NCBI GenBank assembly: GCA_019454165.1
Contig: CP075367.1
Location: forward strand, 579,971-643,970
DNA from: Anaerolineales bacterium
GTDB lineage: Bacteria; Chloroflexota; Anaerolineae; Anaerolineales; UBA11579
Length of the DNA stretch: 64,000 nucleotides
Direction: 5' to 3'
Made by a program: the position numbers and the translations under genes
Shown here: one piece after another, positions 261 to 37,536 of the stretch
How the letters are laid out: each line of letters begins with the position of its first letter
Numbering within the stretch: position 1 is the stretch's first letter
Notes under the pieces: generated by a model
What the model saw: the letters and a program-made list of their open reading frames with translations, nothing else
Database searches by the model: none
What the model was told of the DNA's origin: nothing

Positions 261-3200
261 TTATTGCTCAAAGCCTGAATTCTTGAACTTCAGCGTTTTT
301 GCATTCTCACTTACGGTTCTAACTACATCTTCAGAAAAGCCTTCTGGGCTCTCTGCGGAGATTTCCAAAGAAATCGTTATCTTGGAACCAACCAGCCCCG
401 CTAGATGAGACACAACCTCGTCAGCGATTTGACCCGCGGCGCGCCCAAGGCGTGTGGGGTCCAAGTCTATGGAGCCGTGGAAACGACGAAGGCTTTGCGG
501 CTTAGAGGGAGTAACAGCAGCTTCCGTACCCTCGCCCACAGCATGGCTTTCCCAGCCTTGCCCGCCTGTGTAGACGCTGTCACTGGGCGCCTCGTGGGCC
601 TCGCTTTGCCTTTGCGCCTTCACCGCTGCGGGTTTAATGATGACGCTTGCCCCGTCAAAAGCAACCGACGGCAAGGCGCCGGCGACCAAGCCGACATAGT
701 AGCCATCTGCTCTTACCGCAGAGGCATAACCAAAATAATCAGTCCAGGTGATTGAAGCTACGCCTTGGCGGATTGCTTCGGCGAGTACATTTTGATCACG
801 CAAGCGCGGCAGGTAAAGATACTGTGCCAGATATTCCCAAAGTTGTTTTACGGAAAGATGGTTCGCGTTTTTCCATAAGTAACGATCCAGCTCAATCAAT
901 AGGGTTGCTGCTGCCCAATCTTTGATTAAATCCTGGCTGTGGAGCAGCTTGGCAGACACCCGCTCCACCAGATGCTCTCCGCCTTGCAGACGGGTAAAGC
1001 TCCACTCATATTCCTTGTCCGAGGCGGATTTCTTCTCTTTGTGTCTGGGAAGCAGCGCGTGGCAATAGGTTTCCAGTATCTGCGCCTGCACGATTTCGGT
1101 GTAGTTCTTGCGTTTTGCTTCGACTTCATGCACTTGAGAGGTGGTCAGGTTGCGGTCGTCCCTCTCTGTGTAGATTTGCTCCCAGGCTTTCCAGAGACTT
1201 ACAGCCTGGCTCAATTCCTGATAGCGCTCGTTATCCGCGGCCAGGAAGATGAGCATGTTGCGGTATAGGCGCGGGCTGTTGTCTCGCTGAGTCAGGACAT
1301 CGTCGGCGAAGGCCACGGCTGGGCTGCCACCGTTGTCCTTGCGGTGCGGGTGCGCCGGCCCAATGATGACCAGGCGGCAACTGTCTTCGTCGGGCACATC
1401 GCCGCTGCCCTTGGGGTCGGCGTGTACGCCGGCGAATTCACCCCACTTACGCTTGGCGATGATATCGCGCAGGCGGCGGCTGACTTCGTCCTCAATTTCG
1501 TGCGGGCGTGTGCGAATGCGTTCGGCGATGTTGGCGGCCTCGCGGCCAATGGTTGGCCGGGTATCAAAGTAATACCGCCCGGATTCCTGATAAAGATAGG
1601 TTAGCTCTTCAGAAAGGCGACGCAACGCGTCGCCAAAAGCGCTGACATTCTCCCCGGGCTGAACACAACCCAGCTTGATGTTCAGTTCATCCAAGCCGCG
1701 CACATTCTGCTCAGTAACCGAAGGCGCGCCACCAAAAAAGACCGTGCGCGCTACGCGCCGAGAGGCCGAATAGCGGTTGAGATTGGGGTTATCACGATCC
1801 AACGCCAAGGGGCGGCTTTGCATGCCGTCGATGTCGCGGTCCAGCACGGCGCTCCAGCCAGTGGGCAGATAGTCTGAGAGCGTGGTGCGCACGGTGTTGT
1901 TGTCCAGCGGCACGAAACCAGGCATGATCAGCGCGCCGGCGTCGCCGCGATCCCAAAGCTCGTAGATGATGGCCGCCATGAGGCGCAACACGCCGCGGGT
2001 CTGTTGGAAGCGCTCAAGGGTAGACCAGTCCAAATAGAGCCGGTCAAAGAATTCCGGATGGATTGGGTATGAATTCTTCATCCGTTCCAGATAATCTCCC
2101 TGGCGGGTTTCTGCCGGAAAATCTGCGCGGTTGGCAGCGTACATGTCGCTGAATTCGCGGCAGACTGCATCTCGCGCCGCCAGGTCTTTGATGGGCTCAA
2201 ACAGGCGGCGGCGTACGATTTCAAAGCGCTCGTCACCGCTGGCGGGCTGCCAGGCGACGGCTACACGGACAAAAACGTTTTCGATGTGCTCCAACGCCTT
2301 TTCACCAAAGGGGCCGCCTTTTTCGTGGTCAGAAGCGGGCAGCGAGGCCACCAGCATGCAGTTGGGCACGGTCTTGACGGCCTCGGTGAGGGCTTGCACA
2401 AAGGTGATGTTGGCTTCAAAGGTGCCTGCCGGCAGGTTTTCCTTGCCATAGATTTGGCGGGCAAAACCGACCCACTCATCGATCAAAATTAATGCAGGGC
2501 TGTAGGTCTTGAGCAGCTCGGTGAGCTTTTCCGAGCCAGGGCTGACCCCATCGGCATCTTCTTTGGCGATTAATGCAAAGGCTTCTTTGGCCTTGCCAGC
2601 CGCGGCGCCCAATTGCCAGGCAAGCTCACCCCACAGGGTATTGACCTGGGCGCCGTCTGCCTTTGTGCTGCCGCTGGGGCTGATTTGGGTGCCCACCAGC
2701 ACGACGCGGTTGGCGGCGGGGATGACTGCTTTATCAGCAGCAACGTCCTGGGGAACAATTTTCTCAATATCGGGCACTTGGTTTGGCTGCAATTGCCCGC
2801 CGAACAAGTGATACAGGGCCAGCATGGAGTGGGTCTTGCCGCCGCCGAAGTTGGTCTTGAGCTGCACCACCGGGTCGCCGCCCAGCTGGCCCAGGCGAGA
2901 CCAGGCGCGTTTGAGCAGGGCCGAGAGGCCCTCGGTGAAGTAGGTGCGGTTGAAGAATTCAGCCGGGTCCAGGTATTCTTTTTCTGCCCGGCCAGTGATG
3001 ACCTGGAACAAGTCAGCGGCGAATTCGGCCTGCTGGTAGCGGCCGGCGGCCACGTCTGGGTGCGGAGTGGCGATTTGACGCCAGGGGGTCAGCGCGGTTT
3101 TGCCGCCCAGGTTGGTGGCATCCACCATTTGCTTCTTGCGCTTTTTGGACTCTTCTTCCAGGCTGCGGCGCAGGAGTGCATCGTGCAGCTGCTTGACTTC

Positions 3201-3614
3201 ATCGGCGCCGGTGTTGGCGGTCACTTGCAGCAGGCGCACAATTGTATCCAGGGCGCGCAGCGTGTCTTCTGTGGAGAAGGCGCTTTGGTGCGCCCAACTG
3301 TTGCGGATGTCGTTGATTTCATGCACATAGCTGCGCGTCACCCCGCCCAGCTGGTTGTTAAACACGGTGGGCCAGTTGGTAAGAAAGAGGGTGATGACAA
3401 ACTGCACGTCTGCGCCTTTGCGCACGCGCTCTTCATAGCTGCCCTTGGCTTCTTTGACGCGCAGGCCCTTGGTATCTCGGAAGCAGGGCTCCACGCCTTT
3501 TTGCCACCACTGGTCTTTGTAGGCAGTCTGAAGCTCCTGAATTAGGTAGGGGAGTTCGTTTTCCAGCAGGATGTCCAGCGCCTGCCCAATGAGGTCTTTG
3601 TTGCTCTTCGCCAT
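261..3614 (-). CDS. Swt1-like HEPN domain fused to DUF499-type P-loop ATPase (BrxC/PglY-like large ATPase)
   Basis: ATG at 3614 with AGGAGG 4 nt upstream, overlapping the TAG of the upstream gene. N-terminal HEINDIRNSWAHQ carries the HEPN Rx4H motif. LKTNFGGGKTHSMLALYHLF is the DUF499 Walker A region. The 34 extra codons up to 3716 overlap the upstream gene and were dropped. Confidence 0.8.
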   Translation of the reverse strand: MAKSNKDLIGQALDILLENELPYLIQELQTAYKDQWWQKGVEPCFRDTKGLRVKEAKGSYEERVRKGADVQFVITLFLTNWPTVFNNQLGGVTRSYVHEINDIRNSWAHQSAFSTEDTLRALDTIVRLLQVTANTGADEVKQLHDALLRRSLEEESKKRKKQMVDATNLGGKTALTPWRQIATPHPDVAAGRYQQAEFAADLFQVITGRAEKEYLDPAEFFNRTYFTEGLSALLKRAWSRLGQLGGDPVVQLKTNFGGGKTHSMLALYHLFGGQLQPNQVPDIEKIVPQDVAADKAVIPAANRVVLVGTQISPSGSTKADGAQVNTLWGELAWQLGAAAGKAKEAFALIAKEDADGVSPGSEKLTELLKTYSPALILIDEWVGFARQIYGKENLPAGTFEANITFVQALTEAVKTVPNCMLVASLPASDHEKGGPFGEKALEHIENVFVRVAVAWQPASGDERFEIVRRRLFEPIKDLAARDAVCREFSDMYAANRADFPAETRQGDYLERMKNSYPIHPEFFDRLYLDWSTLERFQQTRGVLRLMAAIIYELWDRGDAGALIMPGFVPLDNNTVRTTLSDYLPTGWSAVLDRDIDGMQSRPLALDRDNPNLNRYSASRRVARTVFFGGAPSVTEQNVRGLDELNIKLGCVQPGENVSAFGDALRRLSEELTYLYQESGRYYFDTRPTIGREAANIAERIRTRPHEIEDEVSRRLRDIIAKRKWGEFAGVHADPKGSGDVPDEDSCRLVIIGPAHPHRKDNGGSPAVAFADDVLTQRDNSPRLYRNMLIFLAADNERYQELSQAVSLWKAWEQIYTERDDRNLTTSQVHEVEAKRKNYTEIVQAQILETYCHALLPRHKEKKSASDKEYEWSFTRLQGGEHLVERVSAKLLHSQDLIKDWAAATLLIELDRYLWKNANHLSVKQLWEYLAQYLYLPRLRDQNVLAEAIRQGVASITWTDYFGYASAVRADGYYVGLVAGALPSVAFDGASVIIKPAAVKAQRQSEAHEAPSDSVYTGGQGWESHAVGEGTEAAVTPSKPQSLRRFHGSIDLDPTRLGRAAGQIADEVVSHLAGLVGSKITISLEISAESPEGFSEDVVRTVSENAKTLKFKNSGFEQ

Positions 3615-3622
3615 CTCTCCTC

Positions 3623-6511
3623 CTAAAACAGGGCGGGCGTTTGCTTGGCGGCCATCTCTTTGAGCCGTGGCCAGGCGGCCACCAGCATGTTGTACCCCAG
3701 CGCCTCGCCCGCCCAACTCTTGCGCTCACAAATGGAGTACAGGCGATAGGCCAGGTCTTTGCCCGGCTCGGCCAGGGCGCCCAGCCCGGTCAGCAGGGCG
3801 GCAGCGGCCGCCTCGCCGTCGGTCTCCAGCGCGCGGATGAGGTAGTGGCAAGCCTCCCAGACCGAGAGCTGCTTGTCGCTGTGCGGGGTCCAATCCGCAT
3901 CCAATTCTTCACGCGGCAGCAGGCGCACCTTGCCAGCACGAGACTGGAGGATACCGGAGTGTGCCAGCCCCTCGATACTAGTGTTTTTGGCTTTGCTCAG
4001 CGTTTCGGCCACGCCGAATTCCGCGGCGTTGTGGCCAAACTGCTCGAACCAGGTTAGCGCCCAGCGCGTCTCGGCGTCAAAATCGCCTTCCTGTTCGGCC
4101 AAGTATTGATCCAGAACCTGGTTAATTAAACCCAAAGCCGTGCGCACGCTCATTTTTGAGCCGTCAGATTCCAGCACAGCGTTGTAGCGGCTAAAGATTG
4201 CCATTCCGGGGCCGATGGCAGCCTGGGCAAAGTCAACCGGAGCGACGTTGCCAAATCTAAGCTCCTGCAATGCTTTTGGCAAAACCTGTTCAAGAAGGAT
4301 AAGGAAATCTCGTCTGACAATGGTGTCGCGCTCATCAGTTTTTGGTCTGCAAACCAAGACAATTGATGAGGCTAATATGTTTGCCCCACCAATTTGAAGC
4401 GCTTTGCTCGCTAATTCCGTGCGCATTGGCCAGGTTCCTGTAATCTCAAACTGTGCATCCAGAAGACCCTGAAGCATTGTTTCCCAGCCGGTTGATGCGG
4501 TCACTGTTTCAGATCTGCTTTCAGTGGTGCTGTCCACTGATTCCGTTTGTTTAAACGCATAAAAGACTGATGTTGGGACAAGAAGCGAGCTGGCCTTAGA
4601 CATGCTCTTAAATGTTTCAAAAAGACCAACTTCAAAGAATTCCTTTGCCCTTTCTCGATTTCCATTAAATCGATAAGGCGTAGCAACGAGTTCCTCGCTC
4701 TTTGGAACCATCAAAGTAGTCAATAAAGAACTAAAACTTGAGTGGAGCATCTGCCTAAGCCATATATAAAAGAAATCTGATAGGTCTGCATATCCAATAT
4801 TGTCGTAGTATGGTGGATCAGTTGCTAGTACAAGCTTGTTACCGTTCGATAACTTTCGAGCATCTCGCTGCTCAGAGAAACCGGGGACACCAATGGGGAG
4901 GCCGTCAATAACACGAAGAATCCAATTGACTGCGCCTGCATAGCTACCCATTGTTTCAAACGGATTTACTTCACAAAAATCCCAAACCATAGGCAGTGCA
5001 TGTCTAGCAAAAGTCCCTCTCAAACTTTCAGAACCTACATCCCAGCTAGCCAATGATGAGTTCCTGTCAAGGAGTTTGCTAGCCGCAAACGCCAAATACA
5101 CGGCCACCGCATCCGCATACGCTTGGGCGCCGCTGCCGCCGGCCTCCAGGCCCAGGCCGTCGTCTTTGAGGCCGGCCTGGCGGGCGTGTTGCAGCGCCAG
5201 GCTGCGGGCCTCGCCCACCAGGTCGCTGAAGGTGGTGAGGGCCACTAGTTGGCGATCGGTGAAGAGGTCTGCGTGCTTTGTCATTCCGTATAGCTGGACA
5301 CGGAAGCCAAGGGCCTTTTCAGGCAGGTCCGTTTCTGGTTTCCACGCGGGTACAGCGCTTTTAGCAACGTCTTCATGTTCTTGAAGTGGCGAGAAATACA
5401 CACGTCCCTTAGGCCCATCTGCGACTGCCGCCAACAACTGAGCGTTCATTCGCCCCGCTTTGCCTTCGTCTCTAATGTGATCAAAGGGTACTGGGCTGCC
5501 ACAAGCTACGCATGATGCACCAGTGCGTTCAACGGTTCCCTTCGGGGCCTTGCCTTGCCCGGTTTTTACAATAAAACGAACTCGCTCCCCTTTAGAGCCT
5601 TTAGTTGGCTCTATTTCTACCCATGCTTGTCTGTCCTTCTTTTTGCTTAGCTCAAAAGAGCGCACCAAGGGCATTTGCACACCGCAAGCTGGATTGGGGC
5701 ACTTCACCGTGCGCGCCCACAGCCAGGCAATTACGGTCAGCTCTTCGCCAGCTTTGATGCCCTGCTCTTTTAAATCGGGTCGCTCAGCCAGTATGGCGGC
5801 CGATATCTTTACCTTGGGGTAAAGCTGGCCAATGCGCTCTTCTGCCTGTTGGCGCATCCAGTTGCCGTAATAGCGCACATCTTCGGCCAAACCCTGGGCG
5901 CCTTTCCACTCTCGGCCCTTGAACATGTCAGATTGGTCGCCTTGCCCAGCTTCTTCCACCGGATGCACTGGGGGCAGGTTAGCGAACTTGGGCGGGATTT
6001 CAATCAGAGCCTTGTTGATGAGCACTGCCACCGGGTTCAAGTCGCTGGCGTAGGCGCGCAGGCCCAGGCGTTGGGCTTCCAGCGGGATGGAGCCGCCGCC
6101 GGCAAAGGGGTCCAGCACGGGTGGGGCCTGGGTGGCCAGGAATTCTTCGATGGCGTGTTTGCCCACCGGCATTTCCAGGCCCAGGTTACGGGCCACACTG
6201 CGGGCAATTTCCAGCTTGGCCGCATCCAGCACTTCTTCGTTGTTGCTGTTCTCCCATTTGACCAGTTCCTCAATCAAGTTGAACAGGCGCTGGCGTTCGG
6301 CTTTCTGTTTCTCCTCATCCTGTATGTACTCACTGGGATCGTCCACCAGGGAAGAGAAGAGCACCGCCCGGCAGGCGGCCAGCGGTCGTCGCGCCCACCA
6401 CAGATGCAAGGTGCTTGGGTGCCCATGGCGGATGGACTTCTCTCGCGCGGCCTCTTTGTTGATTGCCTCAAGTGGCAGGGCGACTTCGATGAGCTTTTTA
6501 GGGTAGGTCAC
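3623..6511 (-). CDS. DUF1156-type DNA methyltransferase (DPPY, probable N6-adenine/N4-cytosine class)
   Basis: N-terminus KKLIEVALPLEAINKEAAREKSIRHGHPSTLHLWWARRPLAACRAV is the DUF1156 signature. It also has a SAM-pocket-like DPFAGGGSIPLEAQRLG and catalytic motif IV LATDPPYYDNIGY. It abuts both neighbouring genes. Confidence 0.85.
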   Translation of the reverse strand: MTYPKKLIEVALPLEAINKEAAREKSIRHGHPSTLHLWWARRPLAACRAVLFSSLVDDPSEYIQDEEKQKAERQRLFNLIEELVKWENSNNEEVLDAAKLEIARSVARNLGLEMPVGKHAIEEFLATQAPPVLDPFAGGGSIPLEAQRLGLRAYASDLNPVAVLINKALIEIPPKFANLPPVHPVEEAGQGDQSDMFKGREWKGAQGLAEDVRYYGNWMRQQAEERIGQLYPKVKISAAILAERPDLKEQGIKAGEELTVIAWLWARTVKCPNPACGVQMPLVRSFELSKKKDRQAWVEIEPTKGSKGERVRFIVKTGQGKAPKGTVERTGASCVACGSPVPFDHIRDEGKAGRMNAQLLAAVADGPKGRVYFSPLQEHEDVAKSAVPAWKPETDLPEKALGFRVQLYGMTKHADLFTDRQLVALTTFSDLVGEARSLALQHARQAGLKDDGLGLEAGGSGAQAYADAVAVYLAFAASKLLDRNSSLASWDVGSESLRGTFARHALPMVWDFCEVNPFETMGSYAGAVNWILRVIDGLPIGVPGFSEQRDARKLSNGNKLVLATDPPYYDNIGYADLSDFFYIWLRQMLHSSFSSLLTTLMVPKSEELVATPYRFNGNRERAKEFFEVGLFETFKSMSKASSLLVPTSVFYAFKQTESVDSTTESRSETVTASTGWETMLQGLLDAQFEITGTWPMRTELASKALQIGGANILASSIVLVCRPKTDERDTIVRRDFLILLEQVLPKALQELRFGNVAPVDFAQAAIGPGMAIFSRYNAVLESDGSKMSVRTALGLINQVLDQYLAEQEGDFDAETRWALTWFEQFGHNAAEFGVAETLSKAKNTSIEGLAHSGILQSRAGKVRLLPREELDADWTPHSDKQLSVWEACHYLIRALETDGEAAAAALLTGLGALAEPGKDLAYRLYSICERKSWAGEALGYNMLVAAWPRLKEMAAKQTPALF

Positions 6512-7528
6512 TTAGAAATGCATCTCCCGGGATGTGGTTGCCTTTAAATCAGCGCTTCCGAGTGGATGGGTTGTTGAATCAAAGAAGCTGACATTGGCAT
6601 GCGGAAAGAGACCGCAATAATACGCTTTTTTGTTCAGAGTGTCTTCGTTACTTCGCGGAAAAATAGAAACGGCCAAAGTCGGATTACCCCAGCTACAAAT
6701 CGCATCAATGATATGTTTGTCGCTTTCACTTAGTGATTGGCCAAAAATGACAAGAGATTTATTGAATTGGGAAAACTTCTGATGGGCAAAAGTCAGATAA
6801 TCAGATGAAGCAATAGTCTCGATTTTTTGCTGAGCGTTTCCTTCGGAAACAAACAGCGGCTCGGCGCCATTGAAGGGTCGCCCAAACAACTCAAGAAGTG
6901 TATATCCTCCTTCGTTCCGACGTTTTAGTGTCCCGCCCAGACGGGTTCGATACAAGTGTAGTCCCCCATGGAGATACAGGACTGCTTTTAAGCCATCAGG
7001 CGCCGAAGCCCTGAGCGAATCAAATCGTTGCTCTCTAAAAAAATCTGTAAAACCTTCGCCTTCTTGTTGCATGATCGACCAGTATGTAAGCAGGTCATAA
7101 TTAGTTGAAAAAATATCGTTATATTCGAACAAGGCAGCCCGGATGGCCTCAAAAATTTCTTGCCAGACCCTATCCCACGGTATGTGCACGGAATGGACTG
7201 CCTGAATGAGCGCCTGTTTTATTCTGTCGTAGCTGGCGGATAACGAAGCCTGTTCTATGTGATGAATCATGTTCACCTGCTGGGCAATTGAGAGCAAGTG
7301 CAGAACCTGTTCAAAGTTGTTGTAGGAGTTAAAACTCTCGAAAAGTTTTATGTCATCTTCGTTCAGTGGATCTTTGATAAGTTCAGAACGTGCTCGCTCG
7401 AATATTGAGGAGTAACTAAATCTATCTGAAACGGCAATGCTTGCTCCGTTTCCGATAAGGATGCCCTCCCAGCCGTTGCCTGCTATCTCTTCCCACGTCA
7501 CTAGGCGATCGTCAATTACGCAATTCAT
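6512..7528 (-). CDS. DUF4917 / SIR2-like (SIR2_2-type) protein
   Basis: Ordered motifs ILIGNGASIAVS, IFSTNYDLLTYW, VLYLHGGLHLY and PLFVSEGNAQQK fit my memory of DUF4917 and of SIR2_2 (GxGxS ... NYD ... LHG). ATG 7528 lies 17 nt inside the helicase 3' end, and the stop abuts the methylase ATG. Low GC: line 7081-7140 hand-counts to 21/60. Confidence 0.7.
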   Translation of the reverse strand: MNCVIDDRLVTWEEIAGNGWEGILIGNGASIAVSDRFSYSSIFERARSELIKDPLNEDDIKLFESFNSYNNFEQVLHLLSIAQQVNMIHHIEQASLSASYDRIKQALIQAVHSVHIPWDRVWQEIFEAIRAALFEYNDIFSTNYDLLTYWSIMQQEGEGFTDFFREQRFDSLRASAPDGLKAVLYLHGGLHLYRTRLGGTLKRRNEGGYTLLELFGRPFNGAEPLFVSEGNAQQKIETIASSDYLTFAHQKFSQFNKSLVIFGQSLSESDKHIIDAICSWGNPTLAVSIFPRSNEDTLNKKAYYCGLFPHANVSFFDSTTHPLGSADLKATTSREMHF

Positions 7529-10500
7529 TTTTTGCCCCCAGACTAACTAAACTCTGAATCTTATAATTCACGCTGGTAGCAGCGAAATCCGGCTCGCGTT
7601 CAAAGGGTGGGCGGAAGTACAGTCGCTCGCGCAGCACCGGCTGGTCGGCTACAAAATCAACTTTGACCACGGCCAGGATGTATTTCTCCGGCTGGTTGAG
7701 ACCGGCCAGGATTTCGTTTCGGGTCAGGGTGACGGTGGTGGCCGCAGCAATACGGCCCTTCACCTCAATGAAGCGCAGGCGGCCTTGGCCATTGCGGCTT
7801 TCAATGTCCCAACCCAGGTTTTGGGCGCTCACGTCTATGGGTTCGTGGCCCAGGCTGCGCTCATAATCCATCACGGCCTGCATGGCGGCCTGCTCCACGG
7901 CGCGGCGCTGAACGCCAAACAGCTCGTCGCCGCTTTCTTCCGCTTCCTGTGCAAGCCCGAGTGTATCCAGCAGGCCGCGCGGCACCACCAGCGCGCCGCC
8001 CAGCAGCCGCGGCTTCTGGGCCACTAGTTGGCGCTCCTGCTCCAGCTCTTCCATGCGCCGCTCCAGCCGGGCCTGCAGGTCGTTGGCGCGGCGGCGGGCC
8101 TGCTCAGAATTCAGCTTGGCATTTCGTTTGCCAGCCTGTTCCTGGGCCTTCAGGTCTTCAGCCCGGCGGTCCCAGAACTGAATTTCTTTGGTCAGGCGCT
8201 CTTTGACCGCCGCGGCTGTCTTGCGCACCATTTCTTGGCGGCGGGCGGAAGTCTCCTCAAAATGGGATGGCACCATGCTGGCTACCGCATACTCAATCGC
8301 CCGCTCTTCAAAGTTGTTCTGCAGCCAGTCTTTGGAAAGCTGGCTACGAACCGCATCGAGCCACTCGGACGGGATGGGTTGGTAATCCAGAAAAGGCGCT
8401 GCCCCTGCGGCGCGGGCCGCGCCAGCCGCATCCATCTCCACAAACTGCATCTGGCGCGAAATCACGCGGCGCTCCCCGTTGGAGTCCGGGCGTCCATCCT
8501 GGATGCTGTGCTCAAGGTAAAACAAGGCGCGCGGGCCCTCACTGGGGTCGTTGGGGTCTAACAGCAGCGCGCCGCGCTTGAGCAAGTCTCCGTAACGCTC
8601 CAGAAGAATATCCTGCACAGCTTCTACCAAAGCATGGCCGGGGGTGAGGAACTCGGCGGTGGGCTTGCCGGCAATATCTATATCTTCTTTGTGGAAGGTG
8701 GCGCGCTCGTAGCGCTCCAGCACTTGGCCGCGGCCCAGCAGGCGGGCGCGCTCGCGCACGGCCCCGGGTACATGCGTGATTTCATAGCGGCGCGGTTCGC
8801 GCGGGTGCATCGAGCCACCCAGGATTTCAAAGGCGGCGGCGAAGAAGGAGGCCACGAAGTGAGGCTGCAGCCGCTTGGCGGCAGCCCGCTCAAAATCTTC
8901 GCGAATGTTCTGGATGCGGGTGGTGTCCAGCACATCGCCGGCCAGCAGTTGGTCTTCCAGCAGGGCGCGCACCTTGTTTTGGTCAGTGATGTTGTCCACG
9001 GCTTCAAACAGGCGGGCGCGCACATCCTCTCTGTCTCCGTAGCGCACAGCCTGCACCAACAGCTCGCGCAAACTCTGCTCGCGGAACAATTCCCCCAAGA
9101 CGTCGAAGACAGCGTCGTCGTTTAGCGCCCGGCGCTGCTCTTCGATCTTCTCGAGCAGGCGGGAATATACATAGCCCTCACGGGTTTCGTTGGCCACCAG
9201 GTTCCACAGGTGGCAAACTTCTCGCTGACCAATGCGGTGGATACGGCCAAAGCGTTGCTCCAGGCGGGTAGGGTTCCAGGGCAGATCATAGTTCACCATC
9301 AGGTGAGCGCGCTGCAAATTGATACCCTCACCGGCAGCGTCAGTAGCCACCAGGATGGAGACATCCTTGTCCTGCACAAAGGCGGACTGTACGCGGCGGC
9401 GCTCGTCGCGCAGCATGCCGCCGTGGATAGCGACCACCGCCTCGGGCTTGCCGAGCAGAGTGCGGATGCGGTCGACCAGGTAGTTCAGTGTATCGCGGTG
9501 TTCGGTGAAGATCACCAGCTTGCGCCGCAGCCCAGAGCTATCAAAAAGCTCGTTCTGTTCCTGCAGCAATCGGGAGAGCTCAGCCCATTTGCGGTCATCC
9601 TTGCTGCGGCGCACTTTGTCCGCCATGTTTTCCAGGTCTTTGAGGATGAAAATTTCGGCTTGCAATTCGTCAATGGTGCGAGCTGAAGTGGCCATATCGC
9701 TTACTTCAGTTTCCAGTGCTTCCAATTCCTCGTCGGGAATTTCATCGATGTTTTCGAGTTCCTCGGTGTCTAGATTCACCCAATCTGCTAGTCCGGCGCG
9801 CGCCTGTGCGCCACGCTGGAGCAACGTTTCCTCTCTCAGCTTATCTTCCAAGCGCTGGCGACGACGTTGCAACGACTGGTAAATGGCCTCAGGGCTGGAG
9901 GCCAGGCGGCGCTGCAGGATCATCAAGGCAAAGCCAACTGTGCCGCGCTTCTCCTTGTCCAACTGCTCGGCCCGATTGAACTCTTCTCGGACGTAATTGG
10001 TCACCTGTTCGTAGAGGATCGCCTCCAGATCGGAGAGCTTGTAGTTGACTGTGTACGCCCGCCGCTCCGGGAACAGCCGCGTGCCATCAAAGCGCAGCAG
10101 CTTTTCCTTCACCATCCGGCGCATCAAATCCTGCGCGTCTACTGAATGGTGGCCTTCACGATACTTTCCTTCGAATCTGTCCGGGTCAAGCAGGGCCATA
10201 AAAAGTTGAAAATCTTCCTCTTTACCGTTATGAGGAGTCGCTGTCATGAGTAACAGGTGACGAGTTTGCTGTGAGAGCGCCTGCCCAAGCCTGTAGCGCT
10301 TAGTGTAGGAAATCTCCCCAGCGAACACAGAGGCGGAAAGCTTGTGCGCCTCGTCAAATATCACTAAGTCCCACTCGGCCCGCTTAAGCATCTCTTCATA
10401 GTCTGCGTTACGGCTAAGCCAGTCCAGGCGGGCAATGCCCAGGGGAACGTCTGTGAAGACATTGCCATCTCGAGCTGCCTCAAAACGTGCGTTAGTGAAG

Positions 10501-11039
10501 ATTTCAAACTCCAGGCGAAATTTCTGGTAAAGCTCGTCTTGCCACTGTTCAGTTAAATTACCAGGTGCAACAATCAGACAGCGTTCCAAGTCGCCGCGCA
10601 GCATGAGTTCTTTTACATATAGACCAGCCATAATGGTCTTGCCTGCACCAGGATCGTCTGCAAGCAGGTAGCGCAGCGGTTGTCTGGTGAGCATGTGCTC
10701 ATAGACTGCTGAAATTTGGTGGGGCAAGGGGTCGATGATGGACAAGTGAACCGCCATCCACGGGTCGAACAAATAGGCCATTCGAATACGCGTAGCTTCG
10801 GAGGCCAGACGGAACAAATCGCCCTGGCTATCAAAAGCCCATTGTGTCCCCGGCTCAAAGATGGTCAGCGCATGCTCTTTTGAGCGAAAAAGCAGCTCTG
10901 TATGAAGGCCGCCTTGCTGGTCGCGGTAGACGACCTCCAGGGTATCGCCTAACCACTTCGCATCTATTATGGTGACCTTCTGTTTAGGGAGCAGGCCCTC
11001 AACCACCGATCCGTACTTTATTTCTTCTAACTTAGCCAC
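7512..11039 (-). CDS. SNF2/DEAH-type helicase with C-terminal PD-(D/E)xK nuclease-like domain (DUF3883-like)
   Basis: Motif I LLADDPGAGKTIMAG, motif II FDEAHKL, motif III LLMTATPHNG and motif VI-like QRFGRIHRIGQ. A long coiled-coil region follows, then a C-terminal GWDIES...RFIEVKGR core (D...E-x-K). GTG start at 11039. Confidence 0.85.
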   Translation of the reverse strand: MAKLEEIKYGSVVEGLLPKQKVTIIDAKWLGDTLEVVYRDQQGGLHTELLFRSKEHALTIFEPGTQWAFDSQGDLFRLASEATRIRMAYLFDPWMAVHLSIIDPLPHQISAVYEHMLTRQPLRYLLADDPGAGKTIMAGLYVKELMLRGDLERCLIVAPGNLTEQWQDELYQKFRLEFEIFTNARFEAARDGNVFTDVPLGIARLDWLSRNADYEEMLKRAEWDLVIFDEAHKLSASVFAGEISYTKRYRLGQALSQQTRHLLLMTATPHNGKEEDFQLFMALLDPDRFEGKYREGHHSVDAQDLMRRMVKEKLLRFDGTRLFPERRAYTVNYKLSDLEAILYEQVTNYVREEFNRAEQLDKEKRGTVGFALMILQRRLASSPEAIYQSLQRRRQRLEDKLREETLLQRGAQARAGLADWVNLDTEELENIDEIPDEELEALETEVSDMATSARTIDELQAEIFILKDLENMADKVRRSKDDRKWAELSRLLQEQNELFDSSGLRRKLVIFTEHRDTLNYLVDRIRTLLGKPEAVVAIHGGMLRDERRRVQSAFVQDKDVSILVATDAAGEGINLQRAHLMVNYDLPWNPTRLEQRFGRIHRIGQREVCHLWNLVANETREGYVYSRLLEKIEEQRRALNDDAVFDVLGELFREQSLRELLVQAVRYGDREDVRARLFEAVDNITDQNKVRALLEDQLLAGDVLDTTRIQNIREDFERAAAKRLQPHFVASFFAAAFEILGGSMHPREPRRYEITHVPGAVRERARLLGRGQVLERYERATFHKEDIDIAGKPTAEFLTPGHALVEAVQDILLERYGDLLKRGALLLDPNDPSEGPRALFYLEHSIQDGRPDSNGERRVISRQMQFVEMDAAGAARAAGAAPFLDYQPIPSEWLDAVRSQLSKDWLQNNFEERAIEYAVASMVPSHFEETSARRQEMVRKTAAAVKERLTKEIQFWDRRAEDLKAQEQAGKRNAKLNSEQARRRANDLQARLERRMEELEQERQLVAQKPRLLGGALVVPRGLLDTLGLAQEAEESGDELFGVQRRAVEQAAMQAVMDYERSLGHEPIDVSAQNLGWDIESRNGQGRLRFIEVKGRIAAATTVTLTRNEILAGLNQPEKYILAVVKVDFVADQPVLRERLYFRPPFEREPDFAATSVNYKIQSLVSLGAKNELRN

Positions 11040-11157
11040 TGGTGTGGATTATACGAGTAACCAGTATCTCATCTGGACAAATGGCCAAGGGCTTTTAGGA
11101 GCGGTCTTAACTGTGCCCGACAACGGAAAGCTAAAATTTGCCCCTAAGGTAGTTGGT

Positions 11158-11958
11158 CTAGAAACTGAAAAGCAGGAGGCTGGTCGCTACGACAATCACA
11201 ATGGAGTAGCCAACTATAAAGGTTGTTGGCACCCAAATTTCCTTTGATGTGAACGAGCGATATTTTTTCTTCCCAAAGCCCAGAGCGTCCCACTCGGCAG
11301 TATAGATCGCGATCTTTAAGTAGCGTTCTATTGTGTTAATAACCTTGAACTTCCCCGTATTTAATTGGCCAAACGAAGTTATCAGGCTTCTCCACGCTCC
11401 ACACAAGATCGCGCCGACTATGCCCAAAATTGCTATCCATGAAGCTCTGGCGACTTGACCATCTGAGTTTTGTAAAACAAAGCCAGCAACTGTGATAAGC
11501 GCACCATTTAGAGTTAAGAAAAATGAGTTTACAGTTTGCCTGCGGTTGATAAGATTCTCAGAGCTTTCGACCATTACTTTGTAAAGTTCAAGTGCCTGGG
11601 TAACATCCTTGTCGTTTTCTAACAAACCATTTGGAAACAGAACGTCAAGGAATCTATCTTCTGAAGGTTGCTTGTTTTCTATCAGCAGGGCTGCCCTTTG
11701 AATGGCCTCTACATACAGATCGTCCTCCCTTCGAGTTTCTGTATCTAGTGCACTATATTCAACCAAGGCTTCGTGCGCTTTATTGCTTCGCATCATCCAT
11801 GCTGACCAAGCGTCATGGACATCGCTCGGGGAAACCGCCTGCCCCTTGGCGCGCAAGAGAATTGCATAGAGACGAAGTAGGTCGTCGGCATCCTGGCGCG
11901 GTACTTTATTCGCTGGTATTTGCTTCCGGATCTCTTCGGCTATATCATCAAGATACAT
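11158..11958 (-). CDS. Membrane protein: N-terminal soluble helical domain plus 3 predicted TM helices (candidate effector partner of the TIR-like protein)
   Basis: Hydrophobic stretches FFLTLNGALITVAGFVL, WIAILGIVGAILCGAWRSLI and IWVPTTFIVGYSIVIVVATSLLLF follow a roughly 140-aa polar N-terminal domain. ATG 11958 directly follows the TAA (11961-11959) of the upstream TIR-like gene. Low GC: 23/60 in line 11521-11580. Confidence 0.65.
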   Translation of the reverse strand: MYLDDIAEEIRKQIPANKVPRQDADDLLRLYAILLRAKGQAVSPSDVHDAWSAWMMRSNKAHEALVEYSALDTETRREDDLYVEAIQRAALLIENKQPSEDRFLDVLFPNGLLENDKDVTQALELYKVMVESSENLINRRQTVNSFFLTLNGALITVAGFVLQNSDGQVARASWIAILGIVGAILCGAWRSLITSFGQLNTGKFKVINTIERYLKIAIYTAEWDALGFGKKKYRSFTSKEIWVPTTFIVGYSIVIVVATSLLLFSF

Positions 11959-12342
11959 TTATCCCCAGCTACTAAGCCAAGTGATAATGTCGGCGAAGTT
12001 CCAACGAATAACATTTGCGCTTGGCAACCCTTGAGGAATGATATGTGTTTCGTCGCGATTAATTTGGATGCCAAACATGTAGTTGCTCTGTCTAATGGTC
12101 TCTGCAATCTCCCACAAAACAGCCTCCGAACGATAAGTGGTTGCACCTATCAATACAATGGTCCCCTTGGTTTGGGCTATTCGTTTTGCGCACTCAGTCT
12201 TCCAGGCGAAATCAAAAGGATCCTTTACAGAGTAATCATAGAATTCAATTTCATTGTTTTTGTCTTTGGCTTGTTGCACCAAGAAATCACGAGCCCATTT
12301 ATCTTCCATTTCAAAACTTATAAAAGCGCGTGGTTTTGCCAT
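11959..12342 (-). CDS. TIR-like domain protein (DUF1863/MTH538-type, ThsB-like)
   Basis: PRAFISFEMEDKWARDFL (beta1 plus acidic motif) and GTIVLIGATTYRSEAVLWEIAETI (conserved W-E) match the DUF1863 TIR-like pattern that includes Thoeris ThsB (from memory). AGGAGG-type SD sits upstream of ATG 12342. Confidence 0.7.
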   Translation of the reverse strand: MAKPRAFISFEMEDKWARDFLVQQAKDKNNEIEFYDYSVKDPFDFAWKTECAKRIAQTKGTIVLIGATTYRSEAVLWEIAETIRQSNYMFGIQINRDETHIIPQGLPSANVIRWNFADIITWLSSWG

Positions 12343-12479: not shown

Positions 12480-13148
12480 ATGACAACAAGGGGGTTTCAA
12501 TGTGCTGGGTGTGGGGTTAAAGGCGCGATTTGGTGCAAAAGTTGTCAAAATCAGACTGTGAGAATAGGGCTGCTCTGTTGCAAAAGATGCGGCTATCCAT
12601 CTGAGAGACATATTTGCAAGTGGTGCTGTTATGAAACGCCCTGGTTTGACAGTGCCAGGTCTTGGGCTCGCTATAGTGGTGAGCTTCGTAAAGCATTGGT
12701 TTACCTGAAGACACAAGAAAGTGTCGATCTAGCGTCCGCATTGGCTGCCCATTTGGCGGAAGTGCTTTTACCTAGCTGGGCAATTGATTTAGTAGTTCCC
12801 ATTCCACTGTCCGCAACCCGGCTGCGTATGCGCGGCTTCAATCAAGCAGAATTGTTGGCACAAGCTTTTGCTCAGCTAGTACAACTGCCTATCGCAATTA
12901 AAGCGCTAATGCGGATTCGTGATACTAAGTTTCAGCGAACCCTGGGACGTGCAGATAGAAAGCAGAACGTGAGACAAGCCTTCAGGGCTGACGGGAGATC
13001 ATTTGCTGGAATGAAGATACTAATAGTCGATGATATTTTCGTAACTGGCGCAACGATTAATTCGGCTTCTAGGGCAATAAAGAAAGCTGGAGGACACTCT
13101 GTGTTCGCAATTACGGTTGCGCGAAGTCTGTTAAACACACCTGCATGA
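12480..13148 (+). CDS. comFC: ComF-family protein (double zinc ribbon plus phosphoribosyltransferase domain)
   Basis: N-terminal Cys pairs CAGCG...CKSC and CKRCG...CKWCC. PRTase PRPP loop ILIVDDIFVTGATINS near the C-terminus. TACAAT lies 10 nt upstream of the ATG. Confidence 0.75.
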   Translation: MTTRGFQCAGCGVKGAIWCKSCQNQTVRIGLLCCKRCGYPSERHICKWCCYETPWFDSARSWARYSGELRKALVYLKTQESVDLASALAAHLAEVLLPSWAIDLVVPIPLSATRLRMRGFNQAELLAQAFAQLVQLPIAIKALMRIRDTKFQRTLGRADRKQNVRQAFRADGRSFAGMKILIVDDIFVTGATINSASRAIKKAGGHSVFAITVARSLLNTPA

Positions 13149-35565: not shown

Positions 35566-35637
35566 GCCGACGTAGCTCAACGGCAGAGCAACCGCCTTGT
35601 AAGCGGTAGGTTATGGGTTCGATTCCCGTCGTCGGCT
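35566..35637 (+). tRNA. tRNA-Thr (anticodon TGT)
   Basis: Hand-folded cloverleaf: acceptor GCCGACG/CGTCGGC, D stem GCTC/GAGC, anticodon stem ACCGC/GCGGT with loop CTTGTAA, and T arm ATGGG-TTCGATT-CCCGT. 72 nt, no encoded CCA. Confidence 0.9.
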
Positions 35638-35690
35638 TCCGTGCAACGCAAGCCTATGGCAATGCGATGTGCATGCGTTGCACGGAACAT

Positions 35691-35773
35691 GGGCAGATAC
35701 CCAAGTGGCCAACGGGGTCTGACTGTAAATCAGATGGCGTACGCCTTCGGGGGTTCGAATCCCTCTCTGCCCA
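35691..35773 (+). tRNA. tRNA-Tyr (anticodon GTA), long variable arm
   Basis: Acceptor GGGCAGA/TCTGCCC, anticodon stem TCTGA/TCAGA with loop CTGTAAA, variable arm TGGCGTACGCCTTC, and T loop TTCGAAT. Confidence 0.9.
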
Positions 35774-35845
35774 CTTTGAGTTGCTGGCTGCAGCGCGTAG
35801 AGAATGCGAAGCATTCTCTCTAGCGAGCGGCGAAGCCGCTCGCTA

Positions 35846-35917
35846 GCCCTCATAGCTCAGTGGTAGAGCGCATTCTTGGTAAGAATGAGGTCATGGGTTC
35901 AATCCCCATTGAGGGCT
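35846..35917 (+). tRNA. tRNA-Thr (anticodon GGT)
   Basis: Acceptor GCCCTCA/TGAGGGC, D stem GCTC/GAGC, anticodon stem CATTC/GAATG with loop TTGGTAA, and T arm ATGGG-TTCAATC-CCCAT. Confidence 0.9.
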
Positions 35918-35965
35918 CTGGTAGTAAAGAAATAATTGAAGGTTAGGTAATTAAGGAGAAAGTAA

Positions 35966-37168
35966 ATGGCGAAGTCAAAGTTTGATCGCAGCAAATCGCA
36001 CTTGAACGTGGGGACGATGGGACACATCGACCACGGCAAGACGACTCTGACTGCGGCGATCACCAAAGTAGCAGCCCTGATGGGCAAGGCTGAGTTCCGC
36101 GGCTACGACCAGATCGACAACGCGCCCGAGGAAAAAGAGCGCGGCATCACCATCAACATCACCCACGTCGAGTACGAGACTGAGAAGCGTCACTACGCCC
36201 ACGTGGATATGCCTGGTCACCGTGACTACATCAAAAACATGATCACCGGTGCGGCCCAGGTGGACGGCGCCATCCTGGTGGTGGCGGCCCCCGACGGCCC
36301 CATGCCCCAGACGCGCGAGCACGTGCTGCTGGCCCGCCAGGTGGAAGTGCCCAGCATCGTCATCTTCCTGAACAAGGTTGACATGATGGACGATCCTGAG
36401 CTGCTGGAACTGGTCGAGCTGGAGCTGCGCGAGCTGCTGAGCAGCTACGAGTTCCCCGGCAACGAGACCCCCATCGTGCGCGGCTCGGCCCTCAAGGCCC
36501 TGGAGAGCACCTCCACCGACCCGAACGCGGAGGAGTATGCTCCCATCCGTGAGCTGCTGCGCGTCATCGATGAGTACATTCCCGAGCCGACCCGCGAGAC
36601 CGACAAGCCCTTCATGATGTCGATTGAAGACGTCTTCTCGATCAAGGGTCGTGGCACCGTGGTGACCGGCCGTATCGACCGTGGCGTCGTCAAGCTGAAC
36701 GACAACGTAGACATTGTGGGTCTGCGTGAGCAGCCCGGCAGCACGGTCGTGACGGGTATTGAAATGTTCCACAAGCAGCTGGATGAGGGCATGGCGGGAG
36801 ACAACGCCGGCCTGTTGCTGCGTGGTGTGGACCGTGAGGGTGTGGAGCGCGGCATGGTGTTGGCCAAGCCGGGCAGCATCAAGCCGCACACCAAGTTCAT
36901 GAGCGAAGTGTATGTGTTGAAGAAGGAAGAAGGCGGACGCCACAAGGCCTTCTTCACCGGGTACAAGCCGCAGTTCTACATCCGCACGCTGGACGTGACG
37001 GGTGAAGTGACCCTGCCGAGCGGGGTTGAGATGGTGATGCCGGGCGACAACGTGAACCTGCAGGTGCAGTTGCAGACGCCGGTGGCGCTGGAGCAAGGCT
37101 CCAAGTTCGCCATTCGTGAAGGCGGCCTGACCGTGGGTGCTGGCGTCATCACCCAGATCTTGGAATAA
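35966..37168 (+). CDS. tuf: Elongation factor Tu
   Basis: [33 protein letters not shown]..., DMPGHRDY and NKVD G-motifs. 400 aa. Confidence 0.97.
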
Positions 37169-37209
37169 GGAAATAACCAAGTCAATACGACTGGTTTAGG
37201 AGTTTTTAC

Positions 37210-37377
37210 ATGGCTGGTAAGAAAGGCGTGCGTGTAGTTATCACTCTGGAGTGCACTGAGTGCCGTGAGCGCAACTACACCTCTGAGAAGAGTCGCCGTA
37301 ATGATCAAGCGCGGCTGGAAATGAAGAAGTTCTGCCCGCGCTGCAAGGGCCATCGCCTGCACCGCGAAACCAAGTAG
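37210..37377 (+). CDS. rpmG: 50S ribosomal protein L33
   Basis: Not in the ORF track because it is under 60 aa. My translation is [55 protein letters not shown], with two CxxC pairs and the canonical position after tuf. Confidence 0.85.
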
Positions 37378-37381
37378 TTTT

Positions 37382-37411
37382 CCAGGTGCGCGCCGTATGG
37401 CGCGCACCTGG
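37382..37411 (+). other. Perfect 13-bp GC-rich hairpin between rpmG and tRNA-Trp (processing or stability element; no T-run)
   Basis: CCAGGTGCGCGCC-GTAT-GGCGCGCACCTGG. It starts 5 nt after the rpmG stop and ends 3 nt before tRNA-Trp. Confidence 0.5.
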
Positions 37412-37414
37412 CTT

Positions 37415-37487
37415 AGGCGAGTAGCTCAATTGGCAGAGCACCGGTCTCCAAAACCGGGGGTTGCGGGTTCGATTCCTGTCTCGCCTG
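37415..37487 (+). tRNA. tRNA-Trp (anticodon CCA)
   Basis: Acceptor AGGCGAG/CTCGCCT, D stem GCTC/GAGC, anticodon stem CCGGT/ACCGG with loop CTCCAAA, and T loop TTCGATT. Confidence 0.9.
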
Positions 37488-37536
37488 CCTGAAACCAAGC
37501 ACAAACAGCATAGCTGTTTGTATGAAGGAGATTGGC

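Follow-up and report, generated by a model that had tools for sequence, protein, structure and literature searches.

A DUF4917 gene between hmaA and hmaB of an Anaerolineales Hma operon as a candidate defence-type SIR2 cassette

What is a short, AT-rich gene doing in the middle of a restriction-modification-like operon, and does it work for that operon or only travel with it? The question is raised by a 64,000-nucleotide stretch of DNA from an Anaerolineales bacterium (contig CP075367.1, positions 579,971 to 643,970; the whole of this stretch is called the window below), in which a reverse-strand gene for a 338-residue protein of the DUF4917 family separates hmaA from hmaB in an operon that, by its sequence, is a restriction-modification-like Hma, or Type-1 BREX-related (BR), system. 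A preliminary description, made from the DNA alone, had rightly named the neighbours as a helicase gene upstream and a DUF1156 methylase gene downstream, the latter followed by a gene for a DUF499 ATPase (Table 1). The answer that we favour, and think probable, is that this is the gene of a single-domain SIR2 protein of the defence type (DUF4917, or PDC-S21 in PADLOC) and forms a one-gene cassette in the hmaA-hmaB slot, its product being a self-contained back-up effector that depletes nicotinamide adenine dinucleotide (NAD+). The DUF4917/PDC-S21 family, the Hma host system and the embedding of defence genes within Hma are already known. What is new is a pair of loci, with and without the gene, that fixes the edges of the cassette; the recurrence of DUF4917 in 13 loci at one specific slot upstream of hmaB, with overlap-coupled junctions; and support from a predicted structure and from the conservation of the putative active site for the assignment to the defence-type SIR2 proteins.

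Family, fold and putative active site

The preliminary description had assigned the gene to DUF4917 from a series of four motifs, and both the motifs and the assignment were confirmed. The 338-residue open reading frame (ORF) contains GNGAS at residues 26-30, STNYD at 141-145, LHGGLHLY at 186-193 and FVSEG at 226-230, and a hidden Markov model search matches it to Pfam DUF4917 (PF16263) with an E-value of 8.9e-48 and 163.7 bits against a cut-off of 28, residues 23-320 covering positions 1-307 of the 311 in the profile. The PADLOC profile PDC-S21 (PDLC04961) is matched over its full length (E 2.9e-97; residues 7-329 on positions 11-333 of 336), and the window gene shares with this entry a single-gene, single-domain organisation, a length of about 335 residues and an embedding in defence systems, with no architectural difference. 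DUF4917 spans the protein end to end, and no SLOG or Macro domain was matched in the Pfam search. The Pfam sirtuin model SIR2 (PF02146) is not among the matches listed for the protein even at E ≤ 1, and the AbiH and PADLOC SIR2 models gave weak matches. SIR2_2 (PF13289), a Pfam family separate from DUF4917, is matched at E ≤ 1 by 32 of 49 relatives, the best with an E-value of 1.3e-6.

These 49 homologues, which are 39-48% identical to the window protein, were used both for an alignment and for building an AlphaFold2 model, which has a pLDDT (predicted local distance difference test) score of 90 and a predicted TM-score (pTM) of 0.88. When the model was compared with the PDB using Foldseek, ranks 1-41 were all taken by defence SIR2 NADases (SIR2-HerA/Nezha, DSR2 and KomC; E 2.3e-8 to 5e-3), with SIR2-HerA/Nezha at the top (E down to 2.3e-8, TM 0.54-0.57) and human SIRT5 coming after rank 41 with an E-value of 5e-3. 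The Rossmann-like SIR2 fold that the preliminary description had looked for is therefore what the model predicts. The looser association with SIR2_2-type proteins that it had also drawn stands as far as this predicted fold is concerned, but not at the level of the PF13289 profile, which stays below its threshold for the window protein. A sequence search of the PDB with the 338-residue protein gave chance lectin matches only. A profile search gave a marginal match to the SIR2 protein of a SIR2-HerA system, PsSIR2 (E 0.005), beside lectin noise of equal score, and this match was therefore used only for placing residues and not as a sign of homology.

Within the alignment of the 49 homologues the three motifs that would build the catalytic pocket are strongly conserved. 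G26, N27, G28 and S30 of the glycine-rich loop are invariant, and this loop, the counterpart of the GAGxS loop of sirtuins, presumably binds NAD, as it does generally in the SIR2 fold. Also invariant are T142, N143, Y144 and D145, in the counterpart of the sirtuin TQNxD motif, and H187, G188, H191 and L192 in the motif with the putative catalytic histidine. In the profile alignment N143, D145 and H187 fall on N163, D165 and H212 of PsSIR2, which are putative catalytic residues whose mutants lose defence (PMC11472057). The only cysteines are C3, C278 and C305, and since these include no CxxC pair the protein has no zinc ribbon, an element that is needed for deacetylation and is missing from bacterial defence SIR2 proteins (PMC11472057). 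Taken together, the predicted fold and the conserved active site support a SIR2-like protein of the defence type, for which NADase activity would be expected. The small domain of PsSIR2 is autoinhibitory, and the helical region at about residues 42-135 may play a similar part.

Edges of the cassette and its recurrence in the slot

The nearest homologue of the window HmaB (P0122, 89% amino acid identity) is encoded on a contig of an Anaerolineales metagenome-assembled genome (MAG), locus L001. Its gene order is ThsB-TIR, DUF7701-8xMP, HmaA, HmaB and HEPN-DUF499, with no DUF4917 gene and a spacer of only 48 nt between hmaA and hmaB. By blastn, window positions 13287-7557 correspond to positions 2-5732 of L001 (83.7% identity) and window positions 6510-4 to positions 5812-12316 (82.5%). 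The segment between these two alignments (Table 1) consists of 15 new codons that end hmaA, the whole DUF4917 gene and one base, the first, of the start codon of hmaB. Its left edge is found 45 nt short of the hmaA stop codon, after the conserved residues SVNYKI, and from there on the 10 final codons of the L001 hmaA give way to the 15 new ones, into which the start of the DUF4917 gene extends; its right edge is the hmaB start codon, which is GTG in the window and ATG in L001. Identity to L001 beside both junctions is 0.88-0.89, which is the background level. No direct or inverted repeats were found flanking 6511 or 7556, and no remnant of a DUF4917 gene was found in L001. The next relatives of HmaB are 65-66% identical, and their operons have either an empty slot, with hmaA and hmaB overlapping directly (L166), or AbiEi/AbiEii genes in it (L164). 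The nearest homologue of the DUF4917 protein itself is only 48% identical. Gain of the gene in the window lineage is the most economical reading of this comparison. In L164 (1912-7441) AbiEi and AbiEii occupy the interval between hmaA and hmaB, and a further, unannotated gene of 348 residues lies between hmaB and hmaC.

Since L001 lacks the gene at this position and the next relatives are empty or carry AbiE, it is not universal in Hma operons; nor is its composition host-like, and the comparison with other DUF1156/DUF499 operons thus came out as the preliminary description had foreseen. Its proposal of a cassette slotted into an existing restriction-modification-like operon is upheld by the absence of the gene from L001 at exactly the same junction, although the part of the proposal that invoked a donor of lower G+C is not. 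Concerning the route of entry, a transposon-like insertion was rejected, as there are no repeats at the edges and the nearest genes belong to the operon or are metabolic rather than mobility genes. A donor tract brought in by recombination with another Hma operon is not supported either, the identity to L001 in the junction flanks being that of the background. The 5′ end of hmaB is only 68-75% identical at the nucleotide level among divergent operons. We would guess that recombination took place where the ends, SVNY and KKLIEVALPLE, are conserved. A tblastn search for a phage origin found no match among 50,697 phage records.

Both junctions of the gene are tight. The ATG at 7528 lies within the end of hmaA, the stop codon of which is at 7514-7512, and a GGGGG sequence sits 7-11 nt 5′ of this ATG; at the other end the TAA stop codon (6514-6512) is followed directly by the GTG of hmaB at 6511. 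The public gene call (P0001, 329 residues) uses an internal GTG at 7501. However, residues 7-12 are conserved among homologues, and because the invariant L9 and the conserved W12 are encoded upstream of that GTG, the ATG at 7528 is the better start and the 17-nt overlap is real. The overlap and the abutting start that underlay an earlier claim of translational coupling on both sides are thus seen, and coupling is what they would suggest. A scan for internal promoters found 7 promoter-like sites against 7.2 expected, which is chance and lends no support to independent transcription, and a scan for terminators was likewise at chance level (22 terminator-like sites against 16.8 ± 4.6 expected).

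The low G+C content of the gene relative to its neighbours was reported correctly in the preliminary description, including its hand counts of 21/60 in 7081-7140 and 47/60 in 5101-5160, which are exact. Among stretches of 1017 bp the gene belongs to the lowest 1% (values for G+C and for G+C at third codon positions, GC3, are given in Table 1). Other stretches nearby are also low in G+C, namely the TIR gene (0.42), the 8xMP gene (0.46) and a part of hmaB at 4400-5010. Every embedded DUF4917 copy is poorer in G+C than its hma flanks, the difference being 4-19 points; this holds for all 11 loci compared besides the window, and GC3 is likewise lower than in hmaA for each copy with an hmaA match to set against it. 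Among all 136 DUF4917 loci with enough flanking sequence the median difference is only -0.9 points. Because every one of the 11 other embedded copies is AT-richer than its flanks, low G+C alone cannot date the event, and it may be a general trait of the mobile cassette rather than the mark of a donor of lower G+C.

The placement in the slot recurs. Twelve other loci have DUF4917 between hmaA and hmaB (L002, L019, the P0028 contig, L085, L091, L106, L107, L108, L113, L119, L123 and L152), and 9 of them are among the 80 closest metagenome loci. In 11 of the 12 (12 of 13 with the window) the gene is directly 5′ of hmaB. The junctions are typically 4-nt ATGA or TTGA overlaps, found between hmaA and DUF4917 in L106, L107, L152 and L123 and between DUF4917 and hmaB in L002, L019, L108, L113, L119 and L123, while the DUF4917 proteins share only 37-60% identity. 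In all the embedded loci HmaA keeps its nuclease domain, so no effector is missing for which DUF4917 would stand in. On a neighbour-joining tree the embedded copies occupy at least five places, with two small clusters, one of the window, L002, L085 and L091 and the other of L107, L108 and L119. The divergence of DUF4917 correlates weakly with that of HmaB, with rho 0.42 (p 0.026, from 28 pairs that are not independent). We read these patterns of sequence as repeated capture and exchange at a preferred slot, where an AT-rich and mobile cassette has also persisted vertically to some extent.

Several of these loci hold more than the one extra gene. A GmrSD-like (DUF262) gene is embedded together with DUF4917 in L002 (4523-7396, GmrSD then DUF4917) and in L107 (907-3650, DUF4917 then GmrSD). 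L019 (7411-9974), from a Planctomycetota MAG, has three more ORFs, of 201, 177 and 453 residues, between hmaA and DUF4917, and the 453-residue product has no Pfam match. On the P0028 contig (JGI 3300071358) DUF4917 is followed by tandem DUF1156 methylase genes (960 and 957 residues, a duplicated hmaB) and then by HEPN-DUF499.

Outside Hma the family is large and its surroundings are varied. It comprises 2289 clusters at 50% identity (E ≤ 1e-3), nearly all of 320-350 residues, and more than 571 genomic loci, many of them stand-alone genes in Pseudomonas chromosomes; members also occur in pathogens. Copies were found in 37 plasmid records, from Leptospira (the largest group), E. coli, Klebsiella, Brucella and other hosts, and in 0 phage records. 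Neighbouring genes encode an Eco57I/MmeI-type (type IIG) methylase in L004, an OLD-family ATPase-TOPRIM protein in L006, a transposase in L005, and a UvrD helicase and a DUF4062 protein in L003. On plasmids they are relaxase and PIN toxin-antitoxin genes (L167, an E. coli IncI plasmid), Hhe (anti-phage), KilA-N and DUF4297 genes (L168, Vibrio) or LXG toxin and phage genes (L169, Bacillus). There is no conserved partner gene among the DUF4917 loci surveyed, and this absence fits a self-contained single-gene module. The arrangement in L003 (7727-12003), where a UvrD-like helicase gene, a 15-nt gap, DUF4917, 62 nt and the DUF4062 gene follow one another, is a possible alternative three-gene context.

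Possible role in the operon

The pattern of a defence cassette embedded in Hma is seen here in full, the gene lying on the same strand between hmaA and hmaB and being absent from L001 and L166. The operon resembles the published system in its HmaA (SNF2 + NOV_C), HmaB (DUF1156) and HmaC (HEPN-DUF499) proteins and also in its additional same-strand gene in the hmaA-hmaB slot, a feature of 63-67% of Hma systems. Embedded families that the published main text describes are ABC-ATPase pairs (Septu, HEC-01 to -04), GmrSD-like proteins, RNases, PARIS and Ppl; neither this text nor the available portions of the supplements of Payne et al. make any mention of a SIR2-like or DUF4917 occupant.

Among characterised systems the closest in predicted structure are the SIR2 proteins of SIR2-HerA (Nezha; PsSIR2, 8w9l/8wld, and E. 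coli, 8sub), with E 2e-8 and TM about 0.55. They share with the DUF4917 protein the N/D/H residues, a similar size (about 340-400 residues), a helical small domain and the lack of a zinc ribbon. The differences are the absence of a HerA gene here, where the neighbours are HmaA, HmaB and HmaC, an identity of only 11-16% and the marginal profile match. The SIR2 of SIR2-HerA forms a dodecamer and is activated by its partner. Thoeris ThsA, DSR1/DSR2 and Avs5 likewise have SIR2 domains of the NADase-type fold, for which an output of NAD+ depletion would be shared, but their sensor domains (SLOG, large C-terminal or STAND) have no counterpart in the DUF4917 protein, which is a SIR2 domain alone. Its 338 residues have neither of the ThsA architectures (SIR2 with SLOG, or a transmembrane segment with Macro), and they compare with the approximately 1000 residues of DSR1/DSR2, which include a large C-terminal sensor region. 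A split Thoeris system, composed of the SIR2-like gene and a ThsB-like TIR gene 4.4 kb upstream, was not taken as the principal explanation, as the TIR gene is paired with, and abuts, DUF7701-8xMP and the pair is kept in L001 without DUF4917. Canonical sirtuin deacylases (PF02146) have a Cys4 zinc ribbon and match the corresponding Pfam model, and the window protein does neither.

In the account that we favour, the DUF4917 gene would be transcribed together with the hma genes, the promoter lying upstream of either the TIR gene or hmaA, and its translation would be coupled to theirs. Once infection is sensed, the N143/D145/H187 centre and the GNGxS loop would hydrolyse NAD+, and the loss of NAD+ would lead to growth arrest or abortive infection; HmaA, the helicase-nuclease that targets DNA, would in this way be backed up by a second layer, acting alongside the HEPN domain of HmaC. 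The DUF4917 protein would be a self-contained module that uses Hma as landing pad and vehicle, and not an obligatory Hma subunit. Several points weigh against this account. The Pfam SIR2_2 profile is sub-threshold for the window protein (13.2 bits against 24.5, E 0.095), and no sensor domain is obvious in a protein of 338 residues. PDC-S21 is mentioned in none of the papers searched, and the PDC entries are predicted candidates according to their own authors. The only DUF4917 protein that has been studied, SliP of C. jejuni, is reported to be a secreted lysine deacetylase and not an NADase (PMC10421069). Finally, the recurrent, slot-specific and tightly overlapped placement in 13 Hma loci could mean that the gene depends on Hma.

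That last point leads to a different explanation, according to which the DUF4917 protein is an integrated accessory of Hma, held inactive by the Hma complex or activated through it (by the HmaA helicase or the STAND-like ATPase of HmaC), and depletes NAD+ once Hma has either engaged foreign DNA or been blocked by an inhibitor from a phage. There are precedents for either mode, since HerA activates SIR2 in SIR2-HerA and the EcoprrI restriction system guards PrrC. Such a role would suit the position between hmaA and hmaB in 13 loci, 12 of them with the gene directly upstream of hmaB, and the 4-nt overlaps that are usual at both junctions despite the divergence of the DUF4917 proteins. It would suit too the top structural match, the SIR2 of SIR2-HerA, for which an ATPase/helicase partner is required and whose small domain exerts autoinhibition, as well as the relatives in L003 and L006, which have a UvrD helicase and an OLD-family ATPase, respectively, as neighbours, and the weak positive correlation of DUF4917 and HmaB divergence. 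We nevertheless regard it as rather unlikely, given that most members of the family stand alone among unrelated neighbours, that the embedded copies are scattered over the family tree, that the closest Hma operon is conserved without the gene and that the retained HmaA nuclease leaves no missing effector to be replaced. The stronger form of the idea, in which Hma-DUF4917 is a distinct, integrated BREX-related subtype and a sensor-less SIR2 NADase is licensed by Hma through HerA-like activation or PrrC-like release, is drawn by analogy and seems to us unlikely. Were it correct, methylation-based discrimination of self from non-self would be coupled directly to NAD+ depletion, and the position upstream of hmaB with ATGA overlaps in 13 divergent loci would reflect stoichiometric co-translation and not mere compaction.

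SliP also prompts the suggestion that the window protein is a sirtuin-type deacylase or an ADP-ribosyltransferase acting on a protein target, either a Hma subunit or a phage protein, rather than a bulk NADase. The sirtuin deacetylase activity reported for SliP (PMC10421069), the presence of SIRT5 among the weaker structural matches and the N/D/H centre, which is common to deacylases and NADases, would be in keeping with this. We consider it improbable, however, in view of the missing zinc ribbon, the absence of a listed Pfam SIR2 match, the 41 best structural matches, which are all NADase-type defence proteins, and the genomic contexts, which are those of defence or mobile-element cargo and not of regulatory operons. 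SliP and the window protein are likened by family only: the gene of the former lies in a pathogen, downstream of dnaK and grpE, and its product is reported to be secreted into neutrophils of the host and to deacetylate host histones there, while the latter is encoded in an anti-phage operon of a probable Anaerolineales genome. A separate issue is whether the gene might be ancestral in the operon, deleted in the L001 lineage and intrinsically low in G+C rather than recently acquired. The AT-richness of the embedded copies in all 11 other loci would agree with this, and the tight ATGA-type junctions in divergent loci suggest a long residence in some lineages. It is made very improbable by the state of the junction in L001 and L166 (empty) and in L164 (AbiE), by the contrast between 48% identity for the nearest DUF4917 homologue and 89% for the HmaB relative, by the lack of any remnant in L001 and by a GC3 gap of 14-22 points that is still unameliorated.

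A self-contained SIR2 cassette therefore remains the account that we prefer, and it adds an example to a published pattern rather than a new category, both the embedding in Hma and SIR2 NADase effectors being established. The window and L001, about 83% identical in nucleotides and differing by one sharply bounded 1-kb cassette with its limits at the hmaB start codon and 45 nt ahead of the hmaA stop, make a clean natural experiment and a ready-made pair of constructs. As a sensor-less SIR2 protein that recurs in one Hma slot with start/stop overlaps, PDC-S21 is a well-motivated defence candidate, and with DUF4917 the switching-on of a minimal SIR2 NADase could be studied in a simple system.

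Host operon and neighbouring genes

The Hma system was described by Payne et al., whose work also put 145 predicted "PDC" candidates into PADLOC, and was renamed Type-1 BREX-related in NAR 2026 (PMC12839542), where the HEPN-DUF499 variant is counted in 1370 taxa. Extra genes are found between the hma genes in 62.7% and 66.5% of Hma operons, according to two papers, and the HmaA nuclease defends against phage T4 (PMC11232893). HmaA of the window has the Pfam domains SNF2-rel_dom, Helicase_C and NOV_C and is 94.6% identical to its L001 counterpart in amino acid sequence; HmaB has DUF1156 and MethyltransfD12. The longest ORF of hmaC begins with a TTG at 3716 and is probably about 34 codons too long, with the true start near 3614, because L001 HmaC aligns only from residue 35. 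The operon carries three potential effectors, the NOV_C nuclease of HmaA, the HEPN_Swt1 RNase domain of HmaC and the SIR2-like gene.

Table 1. Position, basis of assignment and base composition of the cassette, its motifs and the surrounding genes in the window
Feature	Coordinates	Strand	Description	Basis	G+C	GC3
DUF4917 / PDC-S21 gene	6512..7528	(-)	338 aa, ATG start, predicted single-domain SIR2-like	ORF list, Pfam, PADLOC, AlphaFold2, Foldseek	0.450	0.46
G26-N27-G28-A29-S30 codons	7439..7453	(-)	glycine-rich loop, counterpart of sirtuin GAGxS loop	49-homologue alignment		
S141-T142-N143-Y144-D145 codons	7094..7108	(-)	counterpart of sirtuin TQNxD motif	alignment and profile alignment		
L186-H187-G188-G189-L190-H191-L192-Y193 codons	6950..6973	(-)	putative catalytic His motif	alignment and profile alignment		
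Overlap of hmaA end and DUF4917 gene start	7512..7528	(-)	17 nt	sequence		
Inserted segment relative to L001	6511..7556		1046 bp replacing 79 bp of L001	blastn and junction alignments		
hmaA	7512..11039	(-)	SNF2 helicase with C-terminal NOV_C (PD-(D/E)XK) nuclease, 1175 aa	Pfam; PADLOC HmaA 1623 bits	0.581	0.68
hmaB	3623..6511	(-)	DUF1156 N6-adenine DNA methyltransferase, 962 aa, GTG start	Pfam; PADLOC HmaB 1229 bits	0.554	0.60
hmaC	261..3716	(-)	DUF499 ATPase with N-terminal HEPN_Swt1, longest ORF 1151 aa	Pfam; PADLOC HmaC 1037 bits	0.581	0.68
TIR + membrane-protein module	11158..12342	(-)	ThsB-like TIR, 11959-12342 (127 aa); DUF7701-8xMP, 11158-11958 (266 aa)	Pfam		
Whole 64-kb window					0.604	

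The part of hmaB at 4400-5010 has a G+C content of 0.43-0.45 and is possibly a nested target-recognition domain. A recent swap of this part between the window genome and L001 was rejected, because its identity to L001, about 80%, equals that of the rest of hmaB.

The TIR and DUF7701-8xMP genes lie directly upstream of hmaA, abutting one another and outside the inserted segment, and their products are 95% and 85% identical in amino acid sequence to those of L001. The TIR protein has weak PADLOC matches to PDC-M50B and ThsB. 8xMP stands for octameric membrane protein, and the pair looks like a module of TIR protein and membrane effector; a search of the literature on 8xMP found nothing. Further away, about 28 kb from the insert and with no sign of an island boundary, are the only tRNA genes, a group of four on the forward strand at 35566-37489 (Thr-TGT, Tyr-GTA, Thr-GGT and Trp-CCA). 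Divergent from the TIR gene, at 12480-13148 on the forward strand, is a gene for a 222-residue protein with a phosphoribosyltransferase domain, which is also found beside the TIR gene in L001 and could be either a housekeeping gene or a member of the defence locus.

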